From contig CP154954.1 in assembly GCA_039621445.1 (NCBI GenBank), positions 47,347,847 to 47,411,846 on the forward strand: 64,000 nt of DNA, written 5' to 3'. A model generated the notes under the pieces. It saw only the letters and a program-made list of their open reading frames with translations, did no database searches and was not told the DNA's origin. How positions within the stretch are numbered: the first letter of the stretch is position 1; every line of letters starts with the position of its first letter. Below, piece by piece: positions 12,478-31,300 of this stretch. Both the position numbers and the translations under genes were made by a program. This DNA comes from Euglena gracilis (lineage: Eukaryota).

Positions 12478-12578
12478 GACATCGCCTGAGAGGCCAACAC
12501 CTCCGAGTCGAACTGCACCAACGCAAAGCACTTCTGGCCGTTGTTGACCAGGCGCAGGTCCTTGAAGCCCAGGAACGG
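12478..12578 (-). CDS. RRM gene exon 7
   Basis: PFLGFKDLRLVNNGQKCFALVQFDSEVLASQAMS is beta2, RNP1 and helix 2 of RRM2. The following intron starts GCCCAG. Further tiny exons (candidates at about 12313-12319, 11837-11851 and below 11360) are unresolved. Confidence 0.85.
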
Positions 12579-12784
12579 GGGCGGGGGCTGCCGCGGGAGG
12601 GCGGGCCCCAGCGAGGGCGCGGAGGCTCGGACTCACTCACTCCCCAGCCGGGAGCAACGGGGGGGGGTTGGAACAAAGGTGCGAACATGGCCTCTGTTCA
12701 GGGGACCCCTTCCCGAGCAGGGGACGACGGTTTGAGTCAACAGGTACCCCCAAGCCCAATGAACACGAAAGTTACTCTCCAGTG

Positions 12785-12860
12785 TCTGCCTGTCTGTCTG
12801 TCTGTCTGTCTGTCTGTCTGTCTGTCTGTCTGTCTGTCTGTCTGTCTGTCTGTCTGTCTG
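12785..12860. repeat. (CTGT)n microsatellite
   Basis: Direct observation. Confidence 0.95.
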
Positions 12861-13064
12861 CCGGACGGGGATGCATGGGTTGTGTGGGCAATAAAAGGCG
12901 ACAAACTAGATGGTCTGGGCACCTCCGATCCTTGGGCAAGAGGATTGATTAGACATGGGGGGGGGGGGCATTTCTGCACATGAAAGGGGAGAAAAGCTGA
13001 AAAGAACTCAAAAAAATCCGAGTCCAACGCTGAACTGGATGAGCAAAGCTGGGGGAAAAACTGA

Positions 13065-13078
13065 GGAAAAGATGTCCT
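13065..13078 (-). CDS. RRM gene micro-exon 6 (QDIFS)
   Basis: Follows an 86-nt GT-AG intron (GTACGT...TTTTTTTAG) and supplies the missing 'xIFx' before PFLGF. The 3' boundary is unresolved. Confidence 0.65.
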
Positions 13079-13164
13079 CTAAAAAAAAACCCACCTCAGA
13101 CCAGCTGAAAGAGAATAACGGTATGGAGGTGGTTGGCAACCACCGGTCGAGGAGGCGTACGTAC

Positions 13165-13251
13165 GAAGCTCCTCCTCTGTGACATTTGCAGGCAGGCCTG
13201 CCACATAAAGAGTGTCGCACGGTTGGGCCACAGCAGGGGAAGAGGTGGGCT
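13165..13251 (-). CDS. RRM gene exon 5
   Basis: PTSSPAVAQPCDTLYVAGLPANVTEEEL is RNP2 of RRM2, followed by a GTACGT donor. Confidence 0.88.
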
Positions 13252-26817: not shown

Positions 26818-27826
26818 TATCAATTGAAAGCTCTTCTCAAGGGCTTTCGACAGATGGCCACGATTTCAGCCATAATGCATAGAGCTAATATTTTCAGCGA
26901 TCGTGCATTCCAAAATTGACATCTTAATTTGTCAAATCCCAAAGTTCAGGCACCATATAGCATATCAATTGAATGCTCTCCCCAAGAACTTTCGCCTGGT
27001 ACCCACAGAACTCAGCCACACTGCACAGCGCTCTGAAAATCGGCGATCGCATGTTCCGACCCTGTTTTCGAATTTGAAATTCCACTGTTTCACCTGCCAT
27101 GTTGCCCCTTGATCGAAAAGCTTCTCCAGGGCTTTCAGCAGATGTCCTTAAAAATTCCCCAAAAATTGGCCAAAAGGAAATCATCACCCCAACCCCCCCC
27201 CAATTTCACACCCGAACCGGCGTCCTAGGACGCTGGTTCGGGCATGAAGCCGGAGCCCCTGGACACGGTTGGCATAAAAATATCAATTTAAAACTGGGGG
27301 TAAAAAACTTGCCTTTTTTCAGGAGGAGCCCACACTGCGGTTATCACCGCGGTTACGTGGGCAAGACGCCTTGCAAGGTAGCGGAGGCAGAGTTCAAAAA
27401 TCGCTTTTGCACGATGACCTTGGTTTGATTCCACCTGTCAACCAACCACTACCCCCCTTATTTGACCCCCCTGATTGAGTGTTTGGGTGGTAAATGTATA
27501 TGTATGAGGTTTGGCATGTCCGATGAGGATCCTCGGCCACCCAGGAGGGTGGTTCCCATTTTGCCTTGCCGAGGGGGTCGGACCCCCCGGGGGGGTTGGC
27601 AAAATGGGTGACCTCCCCAAAATAAGACCCCCCAAAAACAAGACCCCCTCAAAATAAGACCCCCATGGGTCGCGGCCCATATCAAGCAAATCCAAAAACA
27701 AGCCCCCCCAATGACGGCACAAAGCAGCAGAGATGGAGAATTTTTTTCCCTAAAAAAATACCAAAATTTTTGAAATTTCATTTTTAAAACAAGTTTAATA
27801 AATGAAATTTCAAAATTTTTGGGATA

Positions 27827-28196
27827 CCATGCCCCCCCTTACTGTTCCCGTCCTGTGGCCCCCTTTTGGGTCCATGGGAACAGCAAGGGGGGGAGTAAGA
27901 GGGGGGGGGAGACGAGCACCCCCCCCCTTACTGTTCCCATGAGCCATGAACCAACAAACCAAGTTAGACCCAAAAGGCCACCTAAAAGCCAAAATGAAGC
28001 TTTTTTGGTTTGCATGCTTGAATTGCACCTCCACATCCATTTTGGCATTGGGTTGGATTTTGGTGGGACTGAGAGCACCTAAAACCAACCCAAAAATCCC
28101 ATTTTGCCTTGCGTTCCAAGAATCCTTTACAAAGAGTGCTGTGACACTGTACTGTTCCCGTCCCCCCAATGGGGGGGACAGTAAGGGGGGGCATGG
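27827..28196. mobile_element. MITE with CCATGCCCCCCC TIR and TA flanks (relative at 31573-31749)
   Basis: TA|CCATGCCCCCCCTTACTGT ... ACAGTAAGGGGGGGCATGG|TA. Confidence 0.75.
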
Positions 28197-31165
28197 TATT
28201 GAGTTCCAAATATAGGGCAAAAGATGAATTGAACCAATTTGCACAGGAGTGCCGAAAGAAAAATTTTAGTGCTTTTGAGAACCTGGAAAATGATTTTTTC
28301 AGGCCGGGTCGGTCAAAAGCAAAATCCAAAAATAAGACCCCCCCAAAATAAGACCCCCCCTACAGTTTTCAAACAAGGGACCCAAAAAAAACGGGTCTTA
28401 TTTGGGGGTGGTTCGGAACGCAGGGGGGGGGGGACGCGGGGGGAACCGTGGCCCAACTGCTTCACGCGTTTTCTTTGGCGTCACCCAAATTTGTGTGTAA
28501 TTATCCTTTGGTCGACCAAAAAAAACATGCCTGGCCAAAATCCGCAGGGGGGGACACGGGGGGACGCGGGGTGTTTGCGGGGGGAACACCCCTTTGGGGG
28601 GGGATATTGGTCTTGTTCTCACCGCGGTTACACCACGGTTACACCGCGGTTACACCGCGGTGACCTGGGCTCCTCCTCATGAGAATTTTGGGTGTGCCGG
28701 GCTGGGCCGGGGTTGGGCCGGGCCGGGCCGGGCCGGGCCGCCGACCATGCCATGCTTGGCTGGGCCGGGCCACCGGGCCGCCAGAGGTTCGGCACGTCTG
28801 ACGAGGACCCTCAGCCACCAGGGGGGGGGATCCCCATTTTGTCGTGCCGAGGGGGTCAGTCCCCCAGAGGGGGGGGTCCACCGTGGCGGACAGCCAGAAT
28901 TTCCCAAAGGAAAATTCATTGGTATGGTTCGGCATGCCGTGCCGAGGGGGTTGGCTGACCAGTGGGGTGGGTCCCCATTTTGCCGTGCCGAGGGGGTCGG
29001 GGGGGGGGGTGGCTGCCGAACCTCCGCCGACCGCCTCACACACCTGGAACATCTGATGCTGCATGGGAGGCTAGGTAGTCCACTTCGGGACCCCGGACCC
29101 CCCCCCTCCCCCCTCCCCCTTGTTCAGTTCATTTCGGAAGTGAATAGGGGGGTGGGGAAACCAGCTGACCTGGTCCCGGGGGCTGGTCGCACTTTTTGGC
29201 ACCCCCCGTTTCCTGGCATTGAGGCAATCTGGCCCGAAAATCACGCCGCCCCCCCCCCCGCCCCGATTTATGTCGAAAAATTGCCAGAATTTCGCTATTC
29301 GGGGGTGTTGACCAGCAGTGGCTCCGGTGATTATGGGGTTTTGGGGGGTGGGGAACCCAGCTGACCTGGTTCCGGGTCCCGAGACGCTCCCCCCCCCATG
29401 TACGTCTGGAAAAAACCAAAAACCAGAAGGATCAGCGCACACCAATCAAGGCACTTTTTCATGAAAAATTTCGGCACCTTCGGCGCCGGCCCCCCCCCCT
29501 CCCCCCCCCCTCCGGGAAGTCAACATGTCCAGTTCAGTTCGGAAGTGGACAGGGGGGTCCCGCCCCCCTCTCCCCCCGTGTACCTGGGCTCCATGGCACC
29601 ATCACATACATAAAGAGCTCAGAATTGCACAAAACCTGATTGCCCTCACCCCCCCCCCTCAAAGTGGCCACCCTCCAGGCACCGTGGGACCCCAAAATGA
29701 CCACTCTGGGGAGGAACACTTTGGGGGGTGTCAAATGCGCCTTTGGCGCCAAAAGAAATTGAGGGGGGGGGGAGGTAAAGCCAAAGCTTTTGGCCACTTT
29801 GGGGGGGACAATTTGAGGGGGGGTGTATTTTGGGGGGGGGTCGTCCCCATGACCCCTGACCCCCCTTCACCCTGTCAAAATGGCAGAGTCGAAACTGGGG
29901 GGGAGGGGTGGCGAATCCCACCCAACGGGCCTGGCGGGGAGTTTGGGGTCAAACGGAGGTGATTCGGAAACTCAGGAGCCAGTCGCTGGTGAGTGAAAAA
30001 AAAATCTGGGATCCGGGCCGGGGTCATGGTGATAATCCGTGGTTTTCATTGGAGATCAAGCGGTGACTTTTGGGATTTTGGACCCCCCTCCCCTCCCCAG
30101 GTGAAGTTCACCGTTTGAAAGTTCACCGGGGGTCCCGGACCAGGCCGTTTTTTACCAACCCCGGGGGGAGGGGGGGTCCGGAGTGCCTATGAGTGCCTGC
30201 CTAGGCAGGCACAACCCCCCCACTTGGGGGGTGGCGGATTTCGGCCTGTGCCCAGGCACATTCCTTTGAAAAAAGGCCATTTTTGGCTCCCCGGCGCCTT
30301 TGGCGCCGGGTCTGTGCTAGGGCACTTTTGGCCGTGTGCCCCCCCCCCCCGTGGGGTCAGATTTGGAGTGCCTTGGGGTGCCTGCCCAGGCAGGCACCCC
30401 CCCCCTCCGGGGTGGGGTCGGCACCCGACTAAAATACAGCCTCTGCCTAACCCAACGGTAAACTTCACCGGTGAAGTTCACCACAAGCGCACTTTTTTGG
30501 CCAAAAAATGGCCAAAAATGACATTTTGGGCAAGTTTTCTGAAATTTCGATGACATTCCACAATAAAATTCCATTTTGAAAGGAAAAGGAGCAAAATTTT
30601 ACCAAACAAATCACCCAACCATCAAAACGACCCCTGGCCATAACCTAGATCCCGAGCAAAATAAAAAAAAACCAAGAGAACAGGGCTATCTCTAAGCTCA
30701 CCCAAAGGGTGCGGGCTAAAGGGTCCAAAGGGTGCTGGCTAGAAGAAACGTGCTGGCCAGTCCCAGCACGGTACCCCAAAACATCAAAATAGAGCCGGGT
30801 TGGCATATTCTGCCAAAGTTTGGAGGCGAAACCCCAAAACCCCGCAAAAAAAATAGCCCGTTTGCCCCCCCCTTTTTAAAAAAGGTCAATTCCTTTTGGT
30901 CCAAACTTTATTTCAGCGGACCCCACGGGGGGGGGGGACGATTGGGAGTTGGTGGCTGGAAAAAAAAAAGGTGATAGTTGGCTGGACCCCTCCGGCTAAG
31001 AAAACCAAGTGCGGACCCCCAAAATCTTGGGAAGTCACAATCACTTGTGAACTCCAAGAAGAAGCGGGAGTTTTTCTTACCAATGTTGTGACAGCACAGC
31101 TTTCCAAGTTGATGCTTTGTTGCACATCCAGCTTTCAAATACACCCCTGTTTGAAAGAGATGTCT

Positions 31166-31268
31166 GTTCAAAACCATCTGCAAACTGGAAAAGATTGTAG
31201 AACTCCCGTTCTGTCATATCGCGTGGGAGTTCTGTGCAATAAATTGTGGTCACTGGCCCACCAGACAT
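31166..31268 (-). CDS. two-RRM RNA-binding protein (RBPMS/Whi3/plant NSR-like), exon 1
   Basis: MSGGPVTTIYCTELPRDMTEREFYNLFQFADGFE is RNP2 plus helix 1 of RRM1. The 3' boundary is uncertain by a few nt. Confidence 0.85.
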
Positions 31269-31287
31269 TGTGAAGGTGGGAGAAGAC

Positions 31288-31300
31288 CTGCGACAAAAAA
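31288..31300 (-). promoter_or_regulatory. 3' splice acceptor (probable spliced-leader trans-splice site) 19 nt upstream of the ATG
   Basis: Minus strand reads TTTTTTGTCGCAG|GTCTTCTCCCACCTTCACA-ATG. Confidence 0.5.

Follow-up and report, generated by a model that had tools for sequence, protein, structure and literature searches.

Seven nonconventional introns and a 13-nt micro-exon in a two-RRM protein gene of Euglena gracilis

In this study, we analysed a window of 64,000 nt of Euglena gracilis DNA (assembly GCA_039621445.1, contig CP154954.1, forward-strand positions 47,347,847 to 47,411,846; coordinates below are positions within this window). Its minus strand very probably carries, from 31287 to ~11913, a nuclear gene of E. 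gracilis or a very close strain which encodes a protein of 239 amino acids with two RRM domains, and whose transcript receives a spliced leader and loses seven nonconventional introns. The spliced model has eight exons of 13 to 220 nt, together 871 nt in a span of 19,375 nt, and introns that measure, from 5' to 3', 7040, 6160, 330, 2672, 1385, 572, and 345 nt. An open frame of 239 amino acids is maintained across all eight exons, starting with an ATG at 31268-31266 and ending with a TGA at 12047-12045. The gene had been the subject of an earlier note made from the letters of the DNA alone, which proposed a two-RRM gene with giant nonconventional introns but differed from the present model in several exons and junctions.

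Exon joints were obtained by RNA alignment to positions 11500-31450. Four of 24 indexed sequencing runs were examined, namely, the contig runs X1, X2, and X6 and the raw-read run X21, which originate from four different studies. All 24 runs derive from one organism and comprise 19 contig runs with 7-15% of the sampled words (RNA by guess), one run with 56%, and four raw-read RNA-Seq runs. Among the best-supported joints, which were listed and beyond which 75 further joints were present, six minus-strand exon joints were common to all four runs. Each of the six occurred in one contig each of X1, X2, and X6 and was covered by X21 reads as follows.

12132 to 12478, skipping 345 nt: 28 X21 reads
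12575 to 13148, skipping 572 nt: 10 X21 reads
13251 to 14637, skipping 1385 nt: 9 X21 reads
14707 to 17380, skipping 2672 nt: 20 X21 reads
17530 to 24034, skipping 6503 nt: 20 X21 reads, with the same 13 extra letters in every read and contig
24112 to 31153, skipping 7040 nt: 48 X21 reads

The raw reads had between 8 and 41 distinct starts per joint, and X21 depth was close to zero over intron bins outside repeats. A single X6 contig of 881 nt ran from the leader tail at 31288 through all joints to 11913. The T-run tail of the spliced leader was found at 31288 in 20 X21 reads and in one X6 contig; on the mRNA strand, it matches the 3' terminus that is conserved in the spliced leader of E. gracilis (PMC4778363 and PMC6242988). 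The six joints and the 13-letter insert in RNA reads and contigs demonstrate precise excision in vivo. The resulting gene structure is given below, in the order of transcription.

31288 to 31300, minus strand: 3' end of the outron, a pyrimidine-rich run with the AG acceptor 31289-31288 for spliced-leader trans-splicing
31153 to 31287, minus strand: exon 1, 135 nt, with the ATG and the start of RRM1; joint 24112/31153
24113 to 31152, minus strand: intron 1, 7040 nt, AA..AT, CAG at +4..+6 and CTG at -8..-6, 9-bp helix
24034 to 24112, minus strand: exon 2, 79 nt, middle of RRM1, RNA joints at both edges
17874 to 24033, minus strand: intron 2, 6160 nt, GG..CC, no slide, off code; 16-bp helix from the first and last base, -19.4 kcal/mol
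17861 to 17873, minus strand: exon 3, 13-nt micro-exon, NGRI stretch of the RRM1 "LNG" motif
17531 to 17860, minus strand: intron 3, 330 nt, TG..TT, slide of 0 to +3, off code; ends pair at -11.8 kcal/mol, top 10%
17380 to 17530, minus strand: exon 4, 151 nt, end of RRM1 and linker; joints, and contig pieces spanning 17380-17530
14708 to 17379, minus strand: intron 4, 2672 nt, TC..GT, CAG/CTG in register, no slide (intron 3 of the earlier note)
14637 to 14707, minus strand: exon 5, 71 nt, linker, RNA joints
13252 to 14636, minus strand: intron 5, 1385 nt, TC..GT, CGG/CCG in register, 7-bp helix (intron 4 of the earlier note)
13148 to 13251, minus strand: exon 6, 104 nt, start of RRM2; reads through the supposed GT donor at 13164
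12576 to 13147, minus strand: intron 6, 572 nt, AC..CG as aligned, slide of 0 to -2; in code (CGG/CCG) when read as 13148-12577
12478 to 12575, minus strand: exon 7, 98 nt, RRM2 core, RNA joints
12133 to 12477, minus strand: intron 7, 345 nt, GC..CC, CAG/CTG in register
11913 to 12132, minus strand: exon 8, at least 220 nt, end of RRM2, stop codon, and 3' untranslated region (UTR); contigs stop at 11913-11915

A candidate last junction that slides around a shared ATG near 12480/12120 was discarded, as the RNA gives 12478/12132.

To characterize the product, a database search was run with the translation of exon 4, which matched two proteins, P0001 (230 amino acids, source label EG_transcript_27549) and P0002 (224 amino acids, from a second transcriptome). 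The spliced product was identical to P0001 at 226 of 230 residues (98%) and to P0002 at 188 of 220. Labels of the style EG_transcript_N belong to the E. gracilis transcriptome (PMC6366073), and the near identity of the product to one of its entries, together with the leader tail on the reads, bore out the proposed euglenid host. P0001, whose Pfam score was taken as a stand-in for the nearly identical spliced product, matched RRM_1 (PF00076) in two stretches with an E value of 1.5e-19 and 70.1 bits (gathering cut-off, 20.7). When single exon pieces were searched instead, five of six gave no match and one (exon 1) gave a subthreshold match to RRM_1 with an E value of 0.012, so that the two-RRM protein is evident only from the spliced product, and exon-by-exon Pfam searching is nearly blind at this locus. 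The coherent two-RRM protein of the earlier note thus stands for the spliced product, but not for the exon pieces, which on their own carry almost no RRM signal. Since a public transcriptome already contains the transcript, the gene is "hidden," as it had been called, only from gene finders that rely on GT-AG borders. Residues 5-90 of P0001 (RRM1) gave full-domain alignments, at E values of ~1e-6, to two RRM proteins of the RBPMS/MEC-8/couch-potato type, RBPMS (5det) and MEC-8 (5bjr). MEC-8 also has two RRMs. However, the RRMs of nucleolin and RBMS1 scored as well or better (E values of 2e-8 and 3e-8, respectively), and therefore no RRM subfamily was assigned.

Borders of the GT-AG or GC-AG type were possible in none of the seven introns in any register giving the same mRNA, and the same was true of AT-AC borders. 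In Euglena, a code for nonconventional introns, 5'-N3-CDG...CH'G-N5-6|R-exon, has been defined genetically (PMC12501133). Five of the seven introns fitted this code: introns 1, 4, and 7 with CAG/CTG, intron 5 with CGG/CCG, and intron 6 with CGG/CCG after a slide by -1. Direct repeats of 1-3 nt were present at the borders of introns 3, 6, and 7, and inverted repeats were found at the ends of all seven. Nonconventional borders are thus not restricted to the three introns singled out by the earlier note (its introns 2 to 4) but extend to the entire set, intron 1 included, whereas its broader proposal of non-GT-AG borders with ends paired in a +4/-6 register across multi-kilobase introns was supported (7040, 6160, and 2672 nt).

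The terminal 20-mers of the introns paired with energies of -11.8 to -19.4 kcal/mol. Compared with 1000 random pairs from the same pre-mRNA, the terminal pairs ranked within the top 0.6-3.5% for six of the seven introns, and over all seven introns terminal pairing exceeded chance (Fisher combined p, 8e-7). Intron 4 was the sole intron that lacked an internal decoy with a duplex at least as stable as its own. Duplex energy alone was rejected for predicting the 3' partner, because for every 5' end 2 to 46 other downstream loci equalled or surpassed the true one. When the code was combined with the length of the contiguous helix, the true acceptor was the unique best among earlier candidates for introns 4, 5, and 7; for intron 1, 2 of 92 earlier code-compatible acceptors matched the 9-bp helix of the true one. 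Decoy acceptors of intron 1 end at 28239 and 24246. Contiguous helix length was likewise dropped as a general predictor after it failed for intron 6, whose helix consists of 3 bp, a mismatch, and 7 bp.

In the sequence of events that we propose, the leader is joined to the pre-mRNA at the AG acceptor 31289-31288, and the seven nonconventional introns are then excised, joining the eight exons. The ends of each intron would pair, typically CAG at +4..+6 with CTG at -8..-6, here extended to 6-10 bp. By analogy with published work, this pairing would bring the two cut sites together for the excision machinery, and the intron would be released, probably as a circle. The role of pairing as the mechanism goes back to published mutagenesis (PMC12501133), in which introns were delivered on single-stranded oligonucleotides; that these introns were short is our own inference. 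Circular release of the excised intron is attributed to Guminska et al. 2021, as cited in PMC12501133. Among the joints listed here, none led backwards at any intron end, in a scan that was not aimed at circles.

The 13 extra letters between 17530 and 24034 were present in all four runs and in 20 of 20 X21 reads across this joint. They had a single exact match in the window, at 17873-17861, within the skipped region and in the correct orientation (probability by chance, ~1e-4). The residues encoded by this micro-exon were present in both P0001 and P0002. The two introns flanking it differed from the others in how their ends pair. The 16-bp helix of intron 2 was flush at +1/-1, a register unlike the +4/-6 of the code, and the 3' end of intron 3 had its partner not at the 5' end but at intron positions +12..+20, an offset of ~11 nt. 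When intron 3 is folded together with its flanks, the predicted minimum-energy structure would pair six micro-exon bases and the first three intron bases with exon 4 (17500-17530), and the offset helix would continue into exon-exon pairing.

Several observations weigh against the explanation favoured here. Introns 2 and 3 fell outside the published code in every register, and the end pairing of intron 3 ranked only within the top 10% of random pairs. Decoys with equal or better duplex energy were located inside intron 1 (7 loci), intron 5 (4), introns 3 and 7 (2 each), and introns 2 and 6 (1 each), so pairing energy alone does not explain splice-site choice. The RNA status of X1, X2, and X6 is a guess, and only X21 is on record as RNA-Seq, of which ~5% was read; firm RNA evidence therefore comes from one run. 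Finally, the contigs differed from the window at several exon sites and hence stem from a second allele or copy. The first of these points invites the view that introns 2 and 3 are removed by a different route, be it a variant of nonconventional excision that relies on structure only, a removal in steps or in nested fashion, or a spliceosomal event of noncanonical type. The flush helix of intron 2, the internal pairing partner of the intron 3 3' end, and the predicted pairing of the micro-exon with exon 4 all point in this direction. On the other hand, neither intron has GT/GC-AG borders, no intermediate or alternative joint was seen among the joints listed, and 38.8% of the nonconventional introns of E. 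agilis lack the signature that the remaining 61.2% carry (PMC12501133), which makes failure of the code common within the nonconventional class. We consider a separate route unlikely, and introns 2 and 3 are presumably members of the large off-code minority of the same intron class. The more specific idea that the micro-exon is defined without the CAG/CTG code, by a second, structure-only mode of nonconventional excision, is offered tentatively and is more likely wrong than right. If true, such a mode would cover part of the ~39% of introns off the code and could define exons too short for any exon-definition mechanism, and the locus with its 7-kb intron 1 would provide natural substrates for partner choice over kilobases.

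The structure proposed in the earlier note, with seven exons of 14-161 nt, has next to no chance of being right as a whole. Much of what it described is real: the quoted intron-end strings lie on the minus strand at the places given (starts at 24030, 17379, and 14636; ends at 17541, 14708, and 13252), the three proposed non-GT-AG joins preserve the reading frame without introducing a stop, the junctions 17380/14707 and 14637/13251 coincide to the base with RNA joints skipping 2672 and 1385 nt, and reads carry the leader tail exactly at the predicted 31287. In all four runs, however, the place of the predicted junction 24031/17540 was taken by 24034, the 13-nt micro-exon, and 17530, and the pair of ends proposed for this intron reached -10.3 kcal/mol, compared with -19.4 for the true ends. 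The predicted GT-AG intron 13164-13079, with its junction 13165/13078 and a 14-nt exon, was absent among the joints listed; all four runs were continuous from 13251 to 13148 and then continued at 12575. Position 12478, taken as the end of the gene, turned out to be an exon edge, which is followed by a further intron (joint 12478/12132) and an exon from 12132 to ~11913. The residues of the micro-exon and a stretch RTYASSF are missing from the older model, and both are present in P0001 and P0002. An open frame and some complementarity are thus insufficient to fix junctions. A reader equipped with the +4/-6 pairing register alone can detect real genes with nonconventional introns, and the way in which such reading fails is equally apparent, since a 6.5-kb intron backed by plausible pairing and an open frame proved wrong and concealed a micro-exon, and a convincing GT-AG pair proved to be a decoy.

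Variation between the reads and the window bears on the remaining alternatives. At exon sites 12499, 13238, 14646, 17388, and 17453 and in the 3' UTR at 11943-12039, the letters of the window were replaced in all contigs and in about half of the X21 reads. The variants at 17453, 14646, and 12499 alter residues (S96A, G141S, and V204A) to the form found in P0001 and account for three of the four differences between it and the spliced product, so that two alleles or near-identical copies appear to be expressed. The reads, taken from runs of RNA or presumed RNA, might instead have originated from a processed DNA copy without introns at another place in the genome; in that case, or if a paralogue were the source, the split locus would be silent or a relic. 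The differences of the X1, X2, and X6 contigs from the window would fit this explanation, which we nevertheless regard as very unlikely. At the same sites, the letters of the window are retained in roughly half of the X21 reads (at 12499, 11 of 24 and 4 of 12), five of the seven introns have code-conforming ends in this DNA where the RNA places the exon borders, one open frame runs through all eight exons, and two alleles explain the variants more simply. Still less credit is due to the notion that the joints are artefacts of reverse-transcriptase template switching or of mis-assembly at repeats of the intron ends. Both the 1-3 nt direct repeats at introns 3, 6, and 7 and the inverted repeats at all introns would favour template switching. 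Yet the same joints recurred in four runs of four studies, with many distinct read starts at each, X21 coverage nearly vanished over nonrepeat intron sequence, the joints restore two complete RRM domains, and the same joined protein, micro-exon residues included, is present in a second transcriptome (P0002).

Excision of seven nonconventional introns from a trans-spliced transcript, as favoured here, places the gene within a known class. Nonconventional introns of euglenids were described by Milanowski et al. 2014 and 2016, Gao et al. 2024 (PMC11170887), and Nomura et al. 2025 (PMC12501133). According to these sources, an E. gracilis survey counted 16,151 nonconventional introns among a total of 28,337 (PMC11170887), and in E. 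agilis their share is 71.8% (PMC12501133). The introns of this gene resemble them in the absence of GT/GC-AG borders, in their complementary ends (with strong end pairing in six of seven), in borders that are in some cases slidable by short direct repeats, in the fit of five of seven to the code, and in the host genus. They differ in that all seven introns of the gene are nonconventional, that two adjacent off-code introns enclose a 13-nt exon, and that introns 1 (7040 nt) and 2 (6160 nt) modestly exceed the maxima of 4682 and 5931 nt given in the 2024 survey, which used a fragmented draft genome (PMC11170887). The longest GT-AG intron in that survey measured 8197 nt (PMC11170887), and the E. 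gracilis draft-genome paper notes the great size of some introns compared with the coding sequence that separates them (PMC6366073). With GT/GC-AG (U2) and AT-AC (U12) introns, which co-occur with nonconventional introns in the same Euglena genes, the introns share precise removal from nuclear pre-mRNA, but neither border type was found in any of the seven, and the GT-AG pair at 13164-13079 is unused. Spliced-leader addition follows the pattern of trans-splicing in Euglenozoa, with an AG acceptor after a pyrimidine run and reads in which the conserved leader tail precedes exon 1, and shows nothing unusual; about half of E. gracilis transcripts carry a spliced leader (PMC4778363).

Because nonconventional introns have already been mapped genome-wide in Euglena, the novelty of this gene is low, and for Euglena biology it is an ordinary instance of the class. 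Modestly new are the lengths of 7.0 and 6.2 kb, the exclusively nonconventional intron set, and the micro-exon between two off-code introns. Our literature search, to which the supplementary intron tables of PMC12501133 and PMC11170887 did not belong, found no paper on nuclear micro-exons in euglenids, and no description of a 13-nt exon between two adjacent off-code introns was found in the literature. These supplementary tables and the improved E. gracilis gene set (PMC12501133) may include this gene and perhaps longer introns. As substrates for assays, the very long nonconventional introns with terminal helices of 7-16 bp and the 13-nt exon between off-code introns should be handy.

The window as a whole is repeat-rich eukaryotic sequence with ~48% G+C. 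In introns 1, 2, and 4, the segments 14830-15495, 21490-22821, 25486-26817, and 29482-30813 were matched by hundreds of RNA contigs with 95-99% similarity, the summed depth reaching ~2300; these segments are dispersed, transcribed repeat families. X21 reads at 29244-29510 had loose ends with long C runs and gave joints that skip 225 or go back 267, which are probably due to a homopolymer-flanked repeat or a mapping artefact outside the gene model. Long microsatellites are located in introns 5 and 6, at 12779-12871 (a run of a 4-nt unit), 13311-13388 (a GC/GT-rich run), and 14050-14194 (a CA run), and were skipped as repeats in the RNA alignment. Within the window, further copies exist for just 7% of the gene span; outside the gene, 48-89% of the segments 40001-42000, 46001-48000, and 56001-58000 is covered by other copies in the window. 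An Rfam search of the whole window gave 0 matches, and a 99-nt "tRNA-Pyl" (anticodon cta) called by ARAGORN at 52554-52652 on the minus strand lacked Rfam support and is probably spurious. Between 58000 and 64000, G+C content rises to ~70%, compared with ~48% elsewhere, and long stop-free frames are present on both strands, e.g., one of 741 amino acids at 58455-60680 on the plus strand. Four frames of this island had no Pfam match and the 741-amino-acid frame had no Atlas match; an intronless gene rich in G+C, an insert of mobile or viral origin, and frames that stay open through composition alone are all conceivable explanations of the island.

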